Origin: Candidatus Latescibacterota bacterium
Lineage (GTDB): Bacteria; Latescibacterota; UBA2968; GCA-2709665
Assembly (NCBI GenBank): GCA_965222075.1
Contig: OZ244937.1
Coordinates: 4,672,001-4,736,000 of the forward strand
Direction: 5' to 3'
Length of the DNA: 64,000 nucleotides
In this document: positions 32,846 through 41,387 of the stretch, in pieces
How positions within the stretch are numbered: position 1 is the first letter of the stretch
Layout: every line of letters starts with the position of its first letter
Translations under genes and position numbers: made by a program
Notes under the pieces: generated by a model
The model's input: the letters and a program-made list of their open reading frames with translations, nothing else
The model's database searches: none
What the model was told of the DNA's origin: nothing

Positions 32846-35302
32846 TCACTCCTCGGCAACCAGCCGCTCGATCTCCCGCTTAAAATTCTCGTACGATCGA
32901 TATTGATCGTGTCCCGCCTGGCGGTAGCGGACGCCCCCTTTTTTATCCAGCACAAAAGTCGTTGGAATCATCTGAATGCGGAGCTTGCTGTGCAGATTCG
33001 CCTCGGCCGTATCGAAAACCTGGGGAAAAGACGTTAAATGCCGGTCCATCGCCACCTTCACAACCTCTCGATCGTTTTCCACACTGCCCATCCTTCCCAG
33101 CCGGGTGTGGATGCCGATTACTTCAACGGACTGGTCTTTATACCCTTTGTAAAGCCTGTCCAGTATCGGCATCTCCATAAAGCACGCCCCGCACCAGAAG
33201 GCCCAGAAATTCACAACCGCGACCTTGCCCTTCAAATCAGACAGGCTGATGGCCCTCCCCTCCAGGGTGTGCAGCGTAAAATCCGGAAACGGGAACTTGG
33301 GAATCGGCTTGTTGTCGATCTGAGGCTCCGGCAGCTTTTTTTCAAGCGCCTCGCGGAACCGGTCGTAGCCTTCGCCGGAGCCGTACTTACGTTCATACGT
33401 GCGTCGCATCCCCAACCAGATCTCGGAATGAAGCGGCTCCCGGTGGAGGCCCTGGGTATAATAGTCTATTGCCGTATCGAAATCACCTTTCCGCTCTTTT
33501 AGCTGTCCCAAATCCTTCAGCATTTCAAGCGACCACCACTTGCTCTTCACAAGATTACTCTGTGAAGGAAGGCTTTTGAAAGTGTAAAGCGCCCGCTCCA
33601 ATGCACGTTCGGCCTGGTTGTCCGCTCCCGTCAGTAAGTACAACTGACCCAGTGTCTGGAGGTACTGGAAACGGCGTTCCTCAATACGAGGCGGCGGAAT
33701 ATTGGGTTCTGATTCAATCGATTCAAGGGCTTTCCTGGCAAAATGAACTGCGGTTGATAAGTAACGCTTCGTCTCCTGTCCGGGTGGTATCATCATTCCG
33801 CCCAAAGATTGTGCAACCTGCCAGTACGCATGTGCGTGGGGGTTCCAGATTACGGCGCTGTCTACCATTGCATGGACGGTCGCACTGTCGGAAACGATGC
33901 AGTAGGCGTGCAGGGAGTGCAGAAAAGCGGTTCCGCGGTCAATATAGGTCGGGTATTCGTTCAACAGCTTTTCAAGCAACTCTACGGACCGCTGCGGGTC
34001 GTGCTGGGCACCCGTCGCCGCCATAGCCAACAACTTCTCCTCTTCCCTGGATTGTGTTATTTTCACCCCGGGAGGGTGGTGGTTGAAACGCCTTCTGGCT
34101 TGCCTGCGTGGATCGTGATCCAGGGTAAGGACCGTGAAATACCTTCCTCTGGGGAACTTTCCTTTGTTCAGCGTCACCGTATATTCGCCTGCCGGTTGTG
34201 GTCTGTACACCGGCATTGCAACGGCCATGCCTGGTCTGTCGTACACCTCCAGCTCAACGTGTGCGGACTCAGGAACCGTATAGGTAATCATAACCACCGA
34301 ATCCGTCGGTGCACCCGAAATTCCGAGCTTCGGCCTGGGCGTCTCGCTCCCGGCCTTCCGGGGCTTCCGCGCCTGTTGCGCACTGACCTGTAGCGCCGCA
34401 TCCTGCCCGGATACCTGCGCCTTGTCTCCGGCTCTTCGCCTCTCATCCCCTTCCAGTTCCAGCATCACTGTCGGTAGCCCTTCCGCTACCCTGAAGATGG
34501 TCGTCCGGCCGTACTGAATCACCGCGGAGATCCCCGTAAAATAAAGCGCCGTTCCCAGGGTCGCCGCGCCGAGCAGCCCCAGCGCCTTCCAGAGTGCGCC
34601 TGCCTTCAAAAAGCCGGACAGCCCTGCGCCCTGGGGCACCGATGGCAAAAAGAATGGCCCTGGCAGCGCAGCCATTACCTTTCGCGTCAGCTCAGATGTC
34701 GGTCGCTGCGCCTTCAGCGTCTCCTCTACAACCGGCCGCAGTTCTTCTCGAAGCTGATCCCGGGCCACCTGCAGCCTGCCGAGCACCGTAGTTTCCGGAA
34801 CCTCAAGCAACCCGGCGATCTCCCTGTACGTCATCCCCTCCATATAGTGCAGCAGCACGGCCTCCCGGTGCTTCTCCGAAAGTGCTTCAACCGCCCCAAG
34901 CACCCGGTTCCGCATCTCTTCCACCTCGTAAAGACTGTCCGGGGCCTGGGGCAGACGGACAAATGTCTCCGGCAGGATCTCGCTCTGAAGGGCCGCTTCC
35001 TCCGAACGGTCTAAATTGTCAATCGGCACGTCCGGCTTGCGTTTCTGAATCCACTTATTGGAAAGATTCACCGCAATACCCCGGACCCAGGCCGGAAACT
35101 TTCCCGGGTCCTTCAACGATTTCAGATGCAGATAGGCCTCTACAAAGGTCTCCTGGACAAGGTCCTCTGCTGAGGCAAAATTGCCCGTCTTTCCCACCAC
35201 CAGGGCATACACCGCCCCCTTATGCCGCTCGACAAGCGCTTCAAATGCGTCTTCATCGCCCGACAGAACTTGCCGGACCAGTGTGCCGTCAGCCCCGGTC
35301 AT
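32846..35302 (-). CDS. ECF sigma factor fused via a TM helix to Ig-like, TPR and TlpA thioredoxin domains
   Basis: AEDLVQETF (sigma2); LHYMEGMTYREIA (sigma4); hydrophobic ALGLLGAATLGTALYF; TPRs; VVNFWAFWCGAC. Confidence 0.85.
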   Translation of the reverse strand: MTGADGTLVRQVLSGDEDAFEALVERHKGAVYALVVGKTGNFASAEDLVQETFVEAYLHLKSLKDPGKFPAWVRGIAVNLSNKWIQKRKPDVPIDNLDRSEEAALQSEILPETFVRLPQAPDSLYEVEEMRNRVLGAVEALSEKHREAVLLHYMEGMTYREIAGLLEVPETTVLGRLQVARDQLREELRPVVEETLKAQRPTSELTRKVMAALPGPFFLPSVPQGAGLSGFLKAGALWKALGLLGAATLGTALYFTGISAVIQYGRTTIFRVAEGLPTVMLELEGDERRRAGDKAQVSGQDAALQVSAQQARKPRKAGSETPRPKLGISGAPTDSVVMITYTVPESAHVELEVYDRPGMAVAMPVYRPQPAGEYTVTLNKGKFPRGRYFTVLTLDHDPRRQARRRFNHHPPGVKITQSREEEKLLAMAATGAQHDPQRSVELLEKLLNEYPTYIDRGTAFLHSLHAYCIVSDSATVHAMVDSAVIWNPHAHAYWQVAQSLGGMMIPPGQETKRYLSTAVHFARKALESIESEPNIPPPRIEERRFQYLQTLGQLYLLTGADNQAERALERALYTFKSLPSQSNLVKSKWWSLEMLKDLGQLKERKGDFDTAIDYYTQGLHREPLHSEIWLGMRRTYERKYGSGEGYDRFREALEKKLPEPQIDNKPIPKFPFPDFTLHTLEGRAISLSDLKGKVAVVNFWAFWCGACFMEMPILDRLYKGYKDQSVEVIGIHTRLGRMGSVENDREVVKVAMDRHLTSFPQVFDTAEANLHSKLRIQMIPTTFVLDKKGGVRYRQAGHDQYRSYENFKREIERLVAEE

Positions 35303-35481
35303 AAGCGCTCCGCCTTTCAGGGGTAGGGTTCAAATCCGCTCCTGCATTGCTCCATTCCCAACTTCTACATGATAGTGACGCCAGAGGCCAAATCCTAAAA
35401 AAATAACCCTTCCAGCGGGGAAGAGCGCGCATCGCCCTGGATGTTGTACCGGCTGAAGCCGGAGGTAAAACCCGTTTTTTC

Positions 35482-35510
35482 TTGACACATCCTCCTTTGA
35501 AACCTATTTT
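35482..35510 (+). promoter_or_regulatory. Sigma70 promoter of the pheST leader
   Basis: TTGACA-17 bp-TATTTT directly before the T-box. Confidence 0.65.
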
Positions 35511-35516
35511 TTCTTT

Positions 35517-35845
35517 AAAGCTGTGACGGAGGAAAGTACGCTGTCCCCGGCCGGACAGGGAGGGGGCGCCCCGGATTGAGAGCGTCCCTGCGGTATGAGC
35601 AGTGGAAGTTCCCTCCCGAGCTGCAAGGCTGAATGCAATTTCAGTCCCGGGTCACCCCCGGTTTGTACCCGGTTTTGACTCGCGCCTGTCTTTGTTATTA
35701 GGCCACGCCGGTTGCTCTCGCCGTAAAAAGAGAGGGGCAGTACTGGCTGTCCGCAAAGCGGCGCTCCACCGGGGCGCAAATAGGGTGGTACCGCGGAAGG
35801 AAACAAACCCTTTCGTCCCTAAGCTGGATGAAAGGGTCTTTTTAT
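35517..35845 (+). promoter_or_regulatory. T-box riboswitch (Phe specifier), transcription-terminator type
   Basis: GCTGTGA/GAGC GA motif; AG bulge and GATTGAGA loop; GAAG-TTC specifier (35609-35611); AGGG-TGGTACC-GCG...CGTCCCT antiterminator (35782-35820); terminator ACCCTTTCGTCC/GGATGAAAGGGT plus T-run. Confidence 0.9.
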
Positions 35846-35916
35846 GTTTAGAAGCTGTTCATCGGTCGTGGCAGGGAAGTGACTGCCACACCCACTCATC
35901 AACCGGAGATCCCACG

Positions 35917-37482
35917 TTGCAGCAAAACACCCGAATCGACCTGGCGTCTCTCCACGCCCTCGAAATCCGCACCCTCCGCGCCTACCGGGACCGGAAGGAC
36001 GCCGACTGTTCCGATGCCGCCCTCTTGGAAGCGTCGGGCCTTGGTCCCGGCCAGCTCCGGCGGGCCGTCGAATGGCTGCTCTCCAAAGGCCTCCTGGAGG
36101 TCGGTGCCGAAAAGACCGTCGCGGCCGTATCGCTCACCGAACGGGGCGTTGACTGCGTAGAAAAAGGCGCAACCCCCGAAACCGCCCTCGTCTCCCGTGC
36201 CGCAGAAGGGCCTGCGCCCACCCTCAAAGAACTCCAGGCGGACACCCAATTCGACCGGGGCGAATGGGGCAGCGCCTTTGGCGGCCTCAAGGGGGAAGGC
36301 GTCATTCAACTCGAAGGGGAAACCATCCGGATCGCCGATGCGGACAAAGCCGCCTTTTACAAAGACCGGCTCATCCCCGAACTCTTCGGACGCTTTCCGG
36401 ACCCCGGCCAAACGGTCCTCCTCGCCGACCTCCCACAGGATATCCAGGCCTACGTTCAGGACCGCACCCGCAAACGGGGCAAGGGCAGGGGCCCCGTTCG
36501 CCTGGACGAACACCTGGAGCGGGCCTACCGCCTCACCCCATCGGGCGTCCGGACCCTGTGCAGCGTCATAGAGGCGAACCTCACCGGCGAAGAGGTCTCC
36601 CGCCTCACTCCCGACCTGCTCCAGAACGGCTCCTGGAAAGGCGTCACCTTTCGCCGCTACGACCTCTCCCTAAAGCCTCCGCGGGTGCTCATCGGGCGGC
36701 ACCACGCCTACCGGAACTACTTAGACGGCGTGCGCCGCAAGCTCCTCGCCCTCGGCTTCGAGGAAATGAAAGGCCCCTTCGTCGAAACCGAATTCTGGAA
36801 CATGGACGCCCTCTTCATGCCCCAGTTTCACTCCGCCCGGGACATCCACGATGCCTACTACATCAAAAATCCCACACATTCCAGAACCCCGGAAGAGCCT
36901 TACTTCACCCGGGTCGGCGGTGTCCACACCAGCGGCGGAGACACCGGCTCCCGCGGCTGGCGCTACCCCTTCGACCCCGACCGCTCCCGGCGTCTGGTCC
37001 TCCGTACCCAGGGAACCGCCCTCTCGGCGCGAACCCTGGCATCGGCCCCCAATATCCCGGGCAAATACTTCGCCATCGCCCGCTGCTTCCGTCCCGACGA
37101 CGTGGACGCCACCCACGCCGCCGATTTCTTCCAGGTCGAAGGCATCGTCCTGGGCGTCAACATCAACTTCCGTAGCCTGTTGGGCCTGCTCAAACTCTTC
37201 GCCCTGGAAATCGCCCAGTCCGATGACGTGCGCTACGTGCCCGACTACTTCCCCTTCACCGAACCCTCGGTGGAGCTCCAGGCGCAGCACCCCACCCTCG
37301 GCTGGATCGAACTGGGCGGCGCCGGCCTCTTCCGCCCCGAGGTCACGCATCCCCTCGGCGTCGAAGTGCCCGTCATCGCCTGGGGCCTCGGCGTAGACCG
37401 GATGGCCATGGTCGCCCTGGGAATCGACGATATCCGGGACCTCTTCAGCGCCGATTTAGACTTTATTCGCAACGAAAGGTAG
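35917..37482 (+). CDS. pheS: Phenylalanine-tRNA ligase alpha subunit, archaeal/eukaryotic type
   Basis: About 521 aa from TTG 35917 (GGAG RBS). Long N-terminal wHTH-like region; FWNMDALFMPQFHSARD, FFQVEG, YFPFTEPS, GLFRPEV, AWGLGVDR. Confidence 0.92.
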   Translation: MQQNTRIDLASLHALEIRTLRAYRDRKDADCSDAALLEASGLGPGQLRRAVEWLLSKGLLEVGAEKTVAAVSLTERGVDCVEKGATPETALVSRAAEGPAPTLKELQADTQFDRGEWGSAFGGLKGEGVIQLEGETIRIADADKAAFYKDRLIPELFGRFPDPGQTVLLADLPQDIQAYVQDRTRKRGKGRGPVRLDEHLERAYRLTPSGVRTLCSVIEANLTGEEVSRLTPDLLQNGSWKGVTFRRYDLSLKPPRVLIGRHHAYRNYLDGVRRKLLALGFEEMKGPFVETEFWNMDALFMPQFHSARDIHDAYYIKNPTHSRTPEEPYFTRVGGVHTSGGDTGSRGWRYPFDPDRSRRLVLRTQGTALSARTLASAPNIPGKYFAIARCFRPDDVDATHAADFFQVEGIVLGVNINFRSLLGLLKLFALEIAQSDDVRYVPDYFPFTEPSVELQAQHPTLGWIELGGAGLFRPEVTHPLGVEVPVIAWGLGVDRMAMVALGIDDIRDLFSADLDFIRNER

Positions 37483-37491
37483 AGGAGGCCC

Positions 37492-39168
37492 ATGCCCACC
37501 ATCACCGTCATCAAAAGCGACCTGGAACGCCTGGCCGGGCAGTCTTACACCCTCTCCGAACTCGAAGAGGCCCTGGAAACCGCAAAGGCCGAGGTCAAAG
37601 TGGAGGACGAAGACCGGCTCCGGGTGCAGCTCAAAGACACCAATCGGCCCGACCTCTGGTCTTCCGAAGGCCTGGCCCGGCTCCTGAAGGGCTGCCGTGA
37701 GGGCCGACACGACCCCTACCCCTTCTTTGGCGCGGACGAAGCCAGCGGCGAAGTCCACGTCGACCCCGCCCTCAGAGGCATCCGTCCCTACATCGCCGCA
37801 TTTACCTGTCGGGACATCCGGGTGGACGGAGCCGCGCTGGAGCAGCTCATCGAAGCCCAGGAGAAACTGGCCGACAACTACGGCAGGGGCCGCAGTGCCG
37901 TGGCCATCGGCATCTACGACGCCTCCGACATCCTCTTTCCGGTCCGCTACGACGCGGTCGATCCCACGACGACCCGCTTTGTCCCCCTCGAAAGCGATGT
38001 GGAAATGGACCTGAACCGGATTCTTCGCGAACATCCCACCGGAAAGACCTACGCCCACCTCTTAAGCGGCTTCGAAAAATTCCCCCTCATTCGAGACAGC
38101 CGGGGTGAAGTCCTCTCTATGCCCCCCATCATCAACAGCCAGTCCCTCGGCCGCGTGGAAGTGGGCGACACCTTCCTCTTCTGCGAGGCCACCGGCACCC
38201 GGCTCGACACCATCCTGCTCGCCACCGCCATCATGGCCGCCAACATGGCCGACCGGGGTGGCGTCATCGGCCCCGTCGCTGTTCAATACCCCTACGACAC
38301 CCCCCGGGGCCGCAAGGTCCGCTGCCCGGTTGATCTCACCGAACCGGTTGAGGTCGACCTTTCTGACATCCATAAAATCGCGGGCGTCGAACTGGATCCC
38401 AACCGCATCGCCGACGCCCTCCGCGCCATGGGATACCGCGAGGTCACCCTGAAAAGGGAAAAGGTCCACGCGAGGCCCGCGCCTTACCGGGACGACATCC
38501 TCCACGCGGTGGACCTGGCAGAAGACGTGGTGGTCTGCATCGGCTACGACGCCTTTGAACCCGAAATGCCGCGCGACTTCACCATCGGCAAGGCCGCGCC
38601 CGAAGAGGACCTGTCCGACCGCATCCGCAACCTGATGGTTGGCTGCGGATTCCAGGAAGCCTTCCTTCCCATCCTCAGTTCCCACAACGATCTCACCGCC
38701 CGCATGCGCAATCCCGACGCGCCCATCCTGGAAATCGAAAATCCGATGTCGGAATACTACAGCGCCGTAAGATACTCCCTCCTGCCCGGCCTGCTCCATA
38801 TAGAGGGCGTCAGCCGGCGGGCCATCTACCCCCACCGGGTTTTCGAAGTTGGCGAAGTCGCCGTTCTCGCCCCGGAAGAAAACTACGGCTCCCGTACCCA
38901 AATCCACTTAGCCGCCCTGGAGGCAAACGCAGAGGCCAACCTCTCCGGTATCCAGAGTTCCCTGGAGGCCGTCGCCTACTACCTGGATGTCGACTACACC
39001 CTCACCCCGGCCGAGCACCCCACCTTCCTGCCCGGCCGGGCCGGCGAAATCCGCAAAAACGGCCGGGCCTTCGGCGTCATCGGCGAAATCCACCCCGAAG
39101 TCCTGGAAACCTGGGGCATCGCCGTGCCCGTCAGCGCCTTCGAGGTCAACATCGACATCGCGGAATAA
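37492..39168 (+). CDS. pheT: Phenylalanine-tRNA ligase beta subunit, archaeal type
   Basis: 558 aa; MPTITV start, NRPDLWSSEGLAR, LSMPPIINS, YRDDILHAVDLAED. Lacks the bacterial tRNA-binding OB insert and C-terminal FDX-ACB. Confidence 0.92.
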   Translation: MPTITVIKSDLERLAGQSYTLSELEEALETAKAEVKVEDEDRLRVQLKDTNRPDLWSSEGLARLLKGCREGRHDPYPFFGADEASGEVHVDPALRGIRPYIAAFTCRDIRVDGAALEQLIEAQEKLADNYGRGRSAVAIGIYDASDILFPVRYDAVDPTTTRFVPLESDVEMDLNRILREHPTGKTYAHLLSGFEKFPLIRDSRGEVLSMPPIINSQSLGRVEVGDTFLFCEATGTRLDTILLATAIMAANMADRGGVIGPVAVQYPYDTPRGRKVRCPVDLTEPVEVDLSDIHKIAGVELDPNRIADALRAMGYREVTLKREKVHARPAPYRDDILHAVDLAEDVVVCIGYDAFEPEMPRDFTIGKAAPEEDLSDRIRNLMVGCGFQEAFLPILSSHNDLTARMRNPDAPILEIENPMSEYYSAVRYSLLPGLLHIEGVSRRAIYPHRVFEVGEVAVLAPEENYGSRTQIHLAALEANAEANLSGIQSSLEAVAYYLDVDYTLTPAEHPTFLPGRAGEIRKNGRAFGVIGEIHPEVLETWGIAVPVSAFEVNIDIAE

Positions 39169-39221
39169 GTTATGGGAGAGCGAATAGGGAAGGAAAAGCT
39201 GGCGGTGAATCGGTAAGCCAT

Positions 39222-39341
39222 TCAGGGCAGGTGTTCCAGGTCGTCCAGATCTTTATATCCACCAATCAGCAGGTACTCAACACCCCGGGCGTTGAGCAAT
39301 CTCAAGAACTCTTTGAAGTCGGGCGGTAGCTTTAGGTCCAT
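39222..39341 (-). pseudogene. Nucleotidyltransferase gene with a large in-frame internal deletion
   Basis: MDLKLPPDFKEFLRLLNARGVEYLLIGGY|KDLDDLEHLP*: the family N-terminus is joined directly to the family C-terminus. Confidence 0.7.
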
Positions 39342-39492
39342 AGTTTATCCGGCGTAAGGCCTCGATATGGCGCAGGCGTTCTTGAGGAGTTCGCGCAAGC
39401 CAGTAGACTTTTTCGTCTGAGTTATCAAAGAGAGGCGCAATCGAAAAGGCCGTCTTATCTATTTTGAGAGCCGATGAAGAGGTTGGGAGCAT
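39277..39492 (-). CDS. Small protein typically paired upstream of such nucleotidyltransferases (TA-like partner)
   Basis: IDKTAFS...YWLARTPQERL..IE.LR.INYG...RLQRVLE; overlaps the NTase start. Confidence 0.6.
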   Translation of the reverse strand: MLPTSSSALKIDKTAFSIAPLFDNSDEKVYWLARTPQERLRHIEALRRINYGPKATARLQRVLEIAQRPGC

Positions 39493-39613
39493 TTGGTCAC
39501 CTTCCTGTAATATTCGGTCCTCCGGATTGCCGTGAAATTTTCCGTAAAATGGAGTCAGCACCCGATTTTTAGAGGTCTTTTTTTTTAGAGCGTTCGAGAA
39601 GATTTTTGGAAGA

Positions 39614-39973
39614 CTATCTGTAAGAAATGCCCAGTCGGACCGCGGCCGCTTTTAATTTCCTGTCTGAAGTCCATAAGAATATGTTCGACAATCGGGCAGA
39701 AGCCAGAAGGTGTACATCGATCAGTCCGATGCCGACGCCTGTTAATCCGTTGTGTTCAATGAAATACAAGATTTCCTGCTGGTCCGCCGTAGAAGCCTGC
39801 GGAAGCGCCTGAAGTAAAGAGAGAAATTCCTGTCTGTTGCGGATGTTTCCGCAGGCCAGTTCACCGACGATAAAAGGATGGCACACCACTTCCGCTTCTT
39901 GCAGCAACGCCCGAAAGTGGGTGTTTCCCTCTCTGAGGTAGGAGACCCATATTGACGTGTCAACAAGGACCAT
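39614..39973 (-). CDS. vapC: PIN-domain toxin
   Basis: VLVDTSIWV, HPFIVGELACG, DVHLLASA, LWTSDRKL. Confidence 0.9.
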   Translation of the reverse strand: MVLVDTSIWVSYLREGNTHFRALLQEAEVVCHPFIVGELACGNIRNRQEFLSLLQALPQASTADQQEILYFIEHNGLTGVGIGLIDVHLLASARLSNIFLWTSDRKLKAAAVRLGISYR

Positions 39974-39975
39974 GA

Positions 39976-40173
39976 CTATCCGACTCTGGACCGTCGCCTC
40001 GGGACAGGTCGGAGCCTTTTTTCCTGGCCTTCAAGCTCTGCGAGTCTTTTGCTGCTTTCGCGGGCAATCAAAGCTTCAAGGCCAAGCCTGACCAGGGCGG
40101 TTTTCTCGTTGATACCGGTCAAACTGGATGCTTTGTGCAGCAGGGCATCATCTATATTCAGTGTTGTTCTCAT
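39976..40173 (-). CDS. vapB: VapB antitoxin
   Basis: MRTTLNIDDALL...KTALVRLGLEALI, directly upstream of vapC. Confidence 0.88.
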   Translation of the reverse strand: MRTTLNIDDALLHKASSLTGINEKTALVRLGLEALIARESSKRLAELEGQEKRLRPVPRRRSRVG

Positions 40174-40180
40174 ATGTATC

Positions 40181-40209
40181 AATATGCATTGATTATGCAT
40201 ATTTGTCAA
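40181..40209 (-). promoter_or_regulatory. vapBC promoter/operator
   Basis: Minus-strand TTGACA at 40209-40204; palindrome AATATGCAT-N5-ATGCATATT at 40181-40203. Confidence 0.6.
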
Positions 40210-40385
40210 GAGGTATTTCGTGTTTGTAAAAGAGACCCTCCGCATCTTGCGGAGGGTCGCAGTATGATACCGCCTATTGGACTCTCAGGTCAACCAACTA
40301 CTGATAATCCGGGAAGGACATAGGAAAGCCTACAGGCAAAGATCGGGGTGTCCACTCTTATACCTTACCGCCTCGCTAACAGGCT

Positions 40386-41387
40386 TCAGGTGACCGCGGC
40401 TTCATCTATGGAAAAAATCTGTTCAGAGTCGAGGGTCGCTCTGACACCGTTTGGCAGGATTATTTGAGGGCTTGTATGTCCGAGATCTACTCCTGTAAGG
40501 ATGGGAAAATCAAATGCCGATGTATAATAATCTATCAGTTCTTGAAGTAGCGCTTCCTGGATTTCAGACAGATTGTTGATTTTTCCGATAATCAGACCGG
40601 AGATCTCCTTGAAAAGACCCACTTGCTGGCATTGCGCAAGGGCCTCCTCGATATACATAAGAACCGTGTTTCCTGTGTTGACCTCTTCGAGATAAAGAAT
40701 CTTACCCTGAAATGAAGGCCAAAACCGCGTACCCGCCAATGTAAGCAACGTGTGGAGATTTCCACCTACGAGGGGACCCTCAACTTTGCCGTCTCTGAAC
40801 CAATGCCAGCCGGAATGCCCCTTCATCTTACGGGGACTGATTTCACTGGGAATGTCATCCGTCCAGGCACCGGGGGGGTTCAATGGACCCGGAGCAGCAG
40901 GGGTAAACAGGATGTCCTTAATCTTCCGAAGCGTATAACTCAACGGTTCCGGAAACTCGCTGAGCCCATCGATGATTGTCGGACCGTGGAACGTAGCGAG
41001 ATTAAGACGCGAGTGGATACCCATCAGCAGGGCCGTATTCGCACTGTATCCCATCACAATCTTGGGGGAACGTTCGATCAAATTCCAGTCGAGAAGGGGA
41101 AGGAGCGTATTTGTACCTGATCCTCCCGACAAACAAAAAATCGCTTTGATTTCTGGGTCGGCAAATAGGGTATTCAGATCATTGGCGCGTTGTTGAGGGG
41201 GAGGATTCAAATACTCGCGTTCTTGGAGCGCATGACTTGCCAACTGAACTTTCAAGCCGAGACTTTCCAGAGCGGCCCGTGCGCGGGAGAGCCCATTTTT
41301 TTGATGAAGATGAAAAGATGCCGCGGGCGAGGCAATACCCACGGTATCACCCGGTTTCAATCTCCGCGGCTTGATCGTATCACTCAT
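40386..41387 (-). CDS. S66 peptidase (LD-carboxypeptidase / MccF-like)
   Basis: LKPGDTVGIASP, GYSAN nucleophile motif, LYLEE, DLGHT. Confidence 0.85.
   Translation of the reverse strand: MSDTIKPRRLKPGDTVGIASPAASFHLHQKNGLSRARAALESLGLKVQLASHALQEREYLNPPPQQRANDLNTLFADPEIKAIFCLSGGSGTNTLLPLLDWNLIERSPKIVMGYSANTALLMGIHSRLNLATFHGPTIIDGLSEFPEPLSYTLRKIKDILFTPAAPGPLNPPGAWTDDIPSEISPRKMKGHSGWHWFRDGKVEGPLVGGNLHTLLTLAGTRFWPSFQGKILYLEEVNTGNTVLMYIEEALAQCQQVGLFKEISGLIIGKINNLSEIQEALLQELIDYYTSAFDFPILTGVDLGHTSPQIILPNGVRATLDSEQIFSIDEAAVT

Follow-up and report, generated by a model that had tools for sequence, protein, structure and literature searches.

How a phenylalanyl-tRNA synthetase (PheRS) of archaeal type is controlled in a bacterium, and how it came to stand behind a bacterial tRNA-sensing leader, are the questions raised by a locus of Candidatus Latescibacterota. 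The locus lies in a stretch of 64,000 nucleotides (nt) of contig OZ244937.1 (assembly GCA_965222075.1, positions 4,672,001 to 4,736,000 of the forward strand), which we call the window and whose first letter is position 1 of the window coordinates given here. On its plus strand, between 35482 and 39168, a promoter and a T-box leader precede the genes pheS and pheT. A first-pass annotation, made from the letters alone, had read this arrangement as an archaeal-type PheRS under a Firmicutes-style phenylalanine T-box in a diderm bacterium. Our analysis makes it very probable that the T-box leader controls the pheS-pheT operon, and that this operon encodes the only PheRS of the cell, an enzyme of archaeal type.

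A covariance search with the T-box family of Rfam, RF00230, matched 310 nt of leader at 35514-35823 of the plus strand with 82.4 bits and an E value of 2.9e-18, and the match extends over the full length of the model (positions 1-219 of 219), which bears out the complete T-box described earlier. On this full-length match we classify the leader RNA as a class I transcriptional T-box. Upstream of it, a sigma-70-like promoter (35482-35510, plus strand) consists of a -35 box TTGACA (35482-35487), a 17-nt spacer and a -10 box TATTTT (35505-35510). The two boxes agree with the consensus at 10 of 12 positions, one promoter-like site was observed where 0.2 were expected from shuffled sequences, and CTTGAC and TAT-rich boxes are kept in those alignment rows that reach far enough upstream.

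All the elements of the leader lie on the plus strand. With the register taken from the Rfam alignment, Stem I spans 35520-35621 and contains a K-turn region (UGUGAC, 35522-35527, with CGA), a specifier loop with GAAAGUA on its 5' side (35532-35538) and GAAGUUCC on its 3' side (35605-35612, reading GAA-G-UUC-C), an AG bulge (35554-35561) and a distal loop (35570-35581). Stem II (35624-35707) has a lineage-variable apical insert, the distance between its strands being 70 nt in the window and 19-98 nt among the 21 leaders aligned below; its three closing pairs are kept, and its inner pairs are mostly non-canonical, as they are in the Rfam model. At 35709-35734 follow the Stem IIA hairpin (CGG...CCG) and the IIB pseudoknot, formed by CUCUC (35715-35719) and GAGAG (35730-35734). 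The interval between the pseudoknot and Stem III is occupied by an extra hairpin of 7 base pairs and 18 nt (35735-35752), which is an insertion relative to the Rfam consensus, and Stem III itself is placed by the Rfam alignment at 35761-35777. The T-box core GGGUGGUACCGCG stands at 35783-35795, and AGGGUGGUACCGCG at 35782-35795 is the conserved T-box sequence. In the antiterminator (35782-35820) the helices AGGG/CCCU and GCGGA/UUCGU flank a 7-nt bulge, UGGUACC, the first four bases of which (UGGU, 35786-35789) are complementary to the ACCA-3' end of tRNA-Phe. The intrinsic terminator (35807-35843) has a stem of 11-12 base pairs (35807-35837) followed by CUUUUU. Antiterminator and terminator have 35812-35817 in common and are therefore mutually exclusive, as had been proposed; the terminator stem is part of the minimum-free-energy fold of the leader, and the terminator hairpin with its U-run is visible by eye in all 36 leader sequences inspected. 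The anatomy is that of a canonical, mechanistically ordinary class I transcriptional T-box, and it is in this sense that the label "Firmicutes-style" can be retained, without implying a Firmicute origin.

The codon register of the Rfam model places the specifier at 35609-35611 (plus strand), where it reads UUC, a phenylalanine codon complementary to the anticodon GAA. This frame fits the "+0" rule described in the TBDB article (PMC7778990). The host genome, G000 in our sample, has a single tRNA-Phe (G000:C1:2641047-2641122) with anticodon GAA, discriminator base A73 and an encoded CCA, so that its end is complementary to UGGU. Codon-anticodon and UGGU:ACCA contacts are thus both satisfied by the host tRNA-Phe, the latter as the first-pass annotation had expected, and the genes downstream of the leader are those of PheRS. 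The D-loop of this tRNA is bacterial-looking (AGUUGGUA), with U at position 20 by hand count. The archaeal-type PheRS presumably charges it, since this is the sole PheRS of a genome that is 97.6% complete.

These elements together predict the following course of events. Transcription would begin at the promoter, and Stem I of the nascent leader would read the anticodon GAA through the UUC specifier. When tRNA-Phe is uncharged, its free ACCA-3' end would pair with UGGU and stabilise the antiterminator, and RNA polymerase would read through into pheS and pheT. When tRNA-Phe is charged, the more stable terminator would form and transcription would stop about 70 nt before the start codon.

Covariation was examined in a MAFFT alignment of 21 non-redundant leaders from two families, f1 and f2, which constitute one order of Latescibacterota, that of the host. 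Standard pairs occupy 88% of the cells, compared with 40-47% when the partners are slid by 1-3 columns. Both sides have changed in 35 of 60 pairs of the antiterminator form and in 38 of 62 pairs of the terminator form, and the observed pairing and covariation values were reached by 0 of 500 shuffles. Within Stem I, changes on both sides affect 5/6 pairs of helix 3, 3/3 of helix 4 and 7/8 of helix 5, and 5/6 pairs have changed likewise in Stem III (helix 10). The terminator (helix 11 of the terminator form) is paired in 98.3% of cells, with 3 of its 11 pairs changed on both sides. Pairing is 68% in Stem II (helix 6); all five pairs of the IIB pseudoknot (helix 8) have changed on both sides, yet only 72.8% of its cells are paired, in a region around IIA/IIB where MAFFT misaligns part of f2 and 73-75% of cells are paired. 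Stem IIA varies little among the leaders. The extra hairpin (helix 9) is paired in 98% of cells, and in 5 of its 7 pairs both partners have changed; one pair is A-U in 11 leaders and G-C in the other 10. Judged from the alignment, it is a lineage-specific addition. The T-box core GGGTGGTACCGCG and the specifier TTC are invariant in 21 of 21 leaders. Covariation in these sequences supports the canonical T-box fold. RNAalifold suggested two other pairings, one between the specifier UUC and GAA/GGA across its loop, on the 5' strand, and one between 183-188 and 302-306; both were dropped, as it is the Rfam architecture that covaries.

The first gene of the operon, pheS (35917-37482, plus strand), begins with TTG, with GGAG 8 nt upstream, and encodes an alpha subunit of archaeal/eukaryotic type of 521 amino acids (aa). 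It matches NCBIfam model NF003210 with 532.5 bits (cut-off 350) over residues 11-520 of 521, and also PF01409, and PheS relatives align with it from residues 1-7 on. The second gene, pheT (37492-39168, plus strand), starts 9 nt after the pheS stop and encodes a beta subunit of archaeal type of 558 aa, with a B5 and a beta-chain core domain. Its score against TIGR00471 (pheT_arch) is 499.7 bits (cut-off 282.65), and that against TIGR00472 (pheT_bact) is 112.3 bits, far below the cut-off of 402.65; the archaeal-type architecture put forward on length is thus upheld for both subunits. The best solved relatives of the beta subunit are chains 2cxi, 8s8b and 3l4g (201-235 bits), whereas bacterial chains score 45-55 bits. 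No terminator-like site was found 3' of pheT within 39100-39650.

The host genome is a single contig of 5.36 Mb. A profile search of it revealed no open reading frame (ORF) that reaches the pheT_bact cut-off, and in a genome-wide search for pheS the archaeal-type gene was the only match, with none for a bacterial-type pheS; the second, bacterial-type pheST that the first-pass annotation had proposed to look for was therefore not found. The RF00230 search returned one T-box in the whole genome. BamA is encoded (535.6 bits), which backs the description of the host as diderm. LpxC gave no match in this nearly complete single contig, and the outer membrane may lack classical lipid A, or LpxC may be divergent. 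The closest public loci are titled Candidatus Latescibacterota, a few Gemmatimonadota or simply "bacterium", and their PheS proteins are 65-95% identical to that of the window. Two metatranscriptomic libraries of one study contain contigs at least 99% identical to 35529-35719 of the leader and to portions of both genes. They are a weak hint that leader and pheST are transcribed, with DNA carry-over possible; being contigs, they speak neither to transcript ends nor to levels, and the portions they leave uncovered carry no weight. The DNA run X1 has a second contig whose match is confined to conserved segments of the T-box (35605-35635 and 35774-35798) and whose loose ends have f2-type leader sequence, so that a second Latescibacterota species, with the shorter leader, co-occurs in that run.

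The original site of pheST was compared as well. In G079, a genome of the same class with bacterial-type genes, the order is rpmI-rplT-pheS (339 aa)-pheT (795 aa)-zapA-rny (locus L196, G079:C2:20500-31500). The corresponding region of the host reads thrS-infC-rpmI-rplT-(128-aa ORF)-zapA-rny (G000:C1, about 2595500-2605000, minus strand) and is without pheST, and the archaeal-type operon lies about 2.1 Mb from this rplT-zapA site with its own promoter and leader. The emptied site, together with the failure to find bacterial-type pheS or pheT in the genome, supports the view that the archaeal-type PheRS replaced the bacterial one, whose genes disappeared from the place they conservatively hold.

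The distribution of both traits was followed in a sample of 151 Latescibacterota genomes drawn evenly, the host included. RF00230 is present in 19/19 genomes of f1 and 21/30 of f2 (40/49 for the order), and in 1/102 of the other families. A pheT_arch match above the cut-off occurs in 45/49 genomes of the order and in 0/102 elsewhere. The remaining four genomes of the order comprise two with fragments and two, 82% and 90% complete, without a match; outside the order there are only cross-matches of at most 125 bits, on ORFs of 790-840 aa. The profile pheT_bact, at E of at most 1e-50, finds 0/49 genomes in the order and 100/102 elsewhere. Among the nearest genomes 33/41 have a T-box, nearly always exactly one. 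Latescibacterota-like loci were also scanned upstream of pheS with R1, a model of our own built on Stem III and the antiterminator; 37 of the 43 have a T-box there (one being cut by a contig end). The combination of archaeal-type PheRS and T-box is a routine trait of one order, unseen beyond it in the data searched. It belongs to the order and not to this genome in particular, and by the refuting condition that the first-pass annotation had set, the pairing is routine in its lineage. The lone T-box of the sample outside the order, in G079 (124.5 bits; L114 1066-1309, that is G079:C1:305565-305808), is on leuS, and its specifier position, GAA-CUC-G, gives the leucine codon CUC.

Where the leader is missing, the surroundings vary. 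In L035 the flanking upstream gene and the start of pheS are kept and about 330 nt with promoter and T-box are deleted, and in L034, L036-L038 and L008 the DNA upstream of pheS (about 1050-1500) is unrelated to the leader. By these comparisons, some members of one genus, g6, secondarily lost the T-box. On the evolutionary reading that we favour, the stem branch of the order saw bacterial pheST disappear from between rplT and zapA, and a pheST of archaeal type, which most resembles those found in other bacteria, take up a different locus. As the phenylalanine T-box is found in both f1 and f2, it was most simply already on pheST in the common ancestor of the order.

The nearest relatives of the enzyme are archaeal-type PheRS of other bacteria, at about 50% identity, with the labels Eiseniibacteriota, Nitrospira, Armatimonadetes and Spirochaetaceae. 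A PheT tree (FastTree, midpoint root) was built from 149 rows, namely the window protein, 139 of 150 representatives (the other 11 fell outside a length range of 500-640 aa) and 9 added proteins; its labels are sparse, a taxon having been obtained for 4 of 20 clusters. Latescibacterota PheT falls in a clade of 35 rows (support 99) with Eiseniibacteriota, Armatimonadetes and Nitrospira rows, which is nested in a clade of 52 rows (support 92) that adds Spirochaetaceae, WOR-3 and "bacterium" rows. Two archaeal-labelled rows, Aenigmarchaeota and Woesearchaeota (DPANN), adjoin the larger clade from outside. The window protein thus groups with archaeal-type proteins of bacteria, near DPANN rows, and not with the bacterial type. 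Since its nearest relatives belong to other bacteria, the immediate donor of pheST was probably a bacterium, and the step between domains would be older, in line with what is described for the archaeal-type enzyme of spirochaetes (PMC3191353). The inter-domain replacement of the first-pass annotation therefore holds as a replacement of a bacterial by an archaeal-type enzyme, and has to be moved back in time as a transfer between domains.

Several observations weigh against the reading of the leader as a tRNA-dependent switch for pheST, or limit how far it can be taken. tRNA-dependent antitermination is itself attributed to this leader through its homology with T-boxes that have been studied. 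Canonical T-boxes carry a purine directly 3' of the specifier, and this base is C in 20 of the 21 leaders. The antiterminator pairs (helices 11 and 12) never vary in these leaders, so that covariation is uninformative on that helix. The score of 82.4 bits is below the gathering score of RF00230, which is 93 bits, and the leader was detected through the E-value threshold; a default Rfam scan of the whole window is for this reason silent on it. The deficit is due to three inserts that RF00230 leaves unaligned, one of 57 nt at the apex of Stem II, one of 19 nt following Stem IIA/B and one of 9 nt within the loop of the antiterminator, and the shorter leaders of relatives score 97-111 bits, above the cut-off. 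As default thresholds miss the leader of the window, T-boxes in this order are likely to be under-annotated. The T-box is absent from 9 of 30 f2 genomes and from 6 of 43 loci, and T-box control of pheST is thus dispensable. The 151 genomes are a sample and not a census, and the RNA searches of them used stricter filters that lose weak matches. Finally, the coincidence of the two gains is resolved to one stem branch only, and not to their order on it.

The alternative that survives best concerns the origin of the arrangement. T-box and archaeal-type pheST could have come already coupled, as a cassette, from an unsampled bacterial donor into the ancestor of the order, instead of the leader having been recruited within the lineage. 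We hold this to be possible, but less likely than not. In its favour, the two traits trace to a single stem branch, the operon stands at a new locus with its own promoter, the host genome is without any other T-box, and T-boxes available for recruitment are scarce in the rest of the phylum, where the one on leuS is the only case among 102 genomes. The relatives searched speak against it. No T-box was found with R1 upstream of archaeal-type pheS in 37 Nitrospira-labelled loci (PheS 50-54% identical). Metagenome loci with sister-clade PheT relatives were covered too, 80 in number, the best of at least 563; in 43 of them the N-terminus of pheS is present together with 350 nt or more of upstream DNA. 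One of the 43 has a T-box, with a PheS 70% identical to that of the window and an f2-type leader, and among the other lineages a T-box was found in 0 of 42 (R1, with Rfam on 3 loci); the donor group may be an unsampled one, given that the search extended to the best 80 relatives. Archaea, the ultimate source of the enzyme type, are not known to use T-boxes, which also counts against a coupled transfer. Minus-strand R1 matches in L128 (E 0.13) and L163 (E 0.77) are weak and were put down to chance, and T-box motif matches in L184 and L165 were unconfirmed by Rfam.

It could also be supposed that the leader no longer works, or is in decay, as a relic of earlier control, with constitutive expression of pheST by read-through. 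The loss of the T-box without loss of pheST in part of g6, with its clean deletion in L035, and the score of the window leader under the Rfam cut-off would be in keeping with this. Such a relic would hardly have kept its specifier and core invariant in 21 of 21 leaders, nor its promoter boxes conserved, and compensatory changes maintain every variable helix, terminator included, across two families, so that we regard decay as very unlikely. Least credible is that the T-box senses another tRNA through a shifted frame (GUU for valine or UCC for serine) or acts on translation, for although the GUUCC motif offers three frames, the base after UUC is C and not a purine, and frames -1 and +1 needed considering in some leaders according to the TBDB article (PMC7778990), the Rfam register puts UUC at the codon position, the regulated genes are those of PheRS, the U of UGGU matches A73 of tRNA-Phe, a terminator with U-run is kept in all aligned leaders, and the GGAG before the TTG start is some 60 nt past the terminator, outside the switch.

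On the upstream side of the operon, a terminator-like hairpin with a T-run on the minus strand (35406-35426) lies between the T-box promoter and the start of an ORF of 818 aa (32846-35302, minus strand). This ORF has regions 2 and 4 of an ECF sigma factor at residues 23-189 and, in the same frame, TPR repeats at about 590-636 and a C-terminal redoxin/AhpC-TSA domain at 671-800; it may be a fusion of sigma, anti-sigma and thiol-redox functions, unless two separate genes have been taken for a single one. Immediately 3' of pheT, on the opposite strand, are genes for a VapB antitoxin (89 aa) and a PIN-domain toxin (119 aa) at 39614-40245, and a gene for an LD-carboxypeptidase is found at 40386-41387.

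With T-box control of the archaeal-type pheST, this form of regulation is extended to Latescibacterota, a phylum that is uncultured and has genes for an outer membrane. Nature also provides here a clean example of an essential enzyme of foreign origin arising on one branch together with its tRNA-sensing control, while the native genes were cut from a conserved ribosomal-protein cluster. To a bacterial riboswitch that reads only the tRNA, the evolutionary type of the synthetase under its control would make no difference. Were the cassette transfer true, riboswitch-controlled aminoacyl-tRNA synthetase operons would move between phyla as plug-in units, a T-box could join a type of enzyme whose domain of origin lacks T-boxes, and a separate sub-lineage of T-boxes would be recognisable by the extra hairpin and by the C that follows the specifier.

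The system closest to this leader is that of the Firmicute pheS T-boxes, among them the pheST leader of Bacillus subtilis, with which it was compared through the class I transcriptional model RF00230. Alike in both are the order of Stem I (with K-turn, specifier loop and distal platform), Stem II, IIA/B pseudoknot and Stem III, the UGGN bulge, the competing antiterminator and terminator, the UUC specifier and the PheRS target. The leader of the window differs in its host, a member of Latescibacterota with BamA, in the archaeal type of its target, in being the only T-box of the genome, and in its extra covarying hairpin, variable Stem II insert and C after the specifier.

On the side of the enzyme, the comparison is with spirochaetes. 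Archaeal-type PheRS in Spirochaeta, Borrelia and Treponema has alpha subunits of about 513-528 aa and beta subunits of about 514-573 aa and replaced a bacterial enzyme of 340 + 800 aa, its two subunits having been gained together as a clade-marking trait (Andam and Gogarten 2011, PMC3191353). A Spirochaetaceae-labelled protein belongs to the same bacterial clade of our PheT tree as that of the window; the window enzyme is from a different phylum and is nearest to other bacteria, not to Thermococcales. As for control, none of the 6 genomes of Spirochaetes in Table 3 of a 2008 survey has a T-box (Wels et al. 2008, PMC2494555).

In that survey, T-boxes are listed in Firmicutes, Actinobacteria, Chloroflexi, Deinococcus/Thermus and two Proteobacteria, the sporadic ones being on leuA in Geobacter/Pelobacter, on ileS and glyS in Deinococcus, and on ileS and trp genes in Dehalococcoides (PMC2494555). 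Like these, the T-box of the window is one of one or few per genome in a phylum otherwise without them, a pattern that implies lateral spread; the sporadic ones regulate native bacterial-type genes, whereas the target in the window is a xenolog whose gain coincides with that of the T-box. The main text of the TBDB article does not name Latescibacterota among T-box phyla. A literature search found no paper on a T-box in this phylum, although the supplements of TBDB and of Wels et al. may list more phyla, and none linking a T-box with an archaeal phenylalanyl-tRNA synthetase or describing the pairing at the level of a lineage. Compared with these known systems, what is new here is the host phylum, the archaeal-type target, the gain of both traits on one branch, and the small structural idiosyncrasies of the leader.

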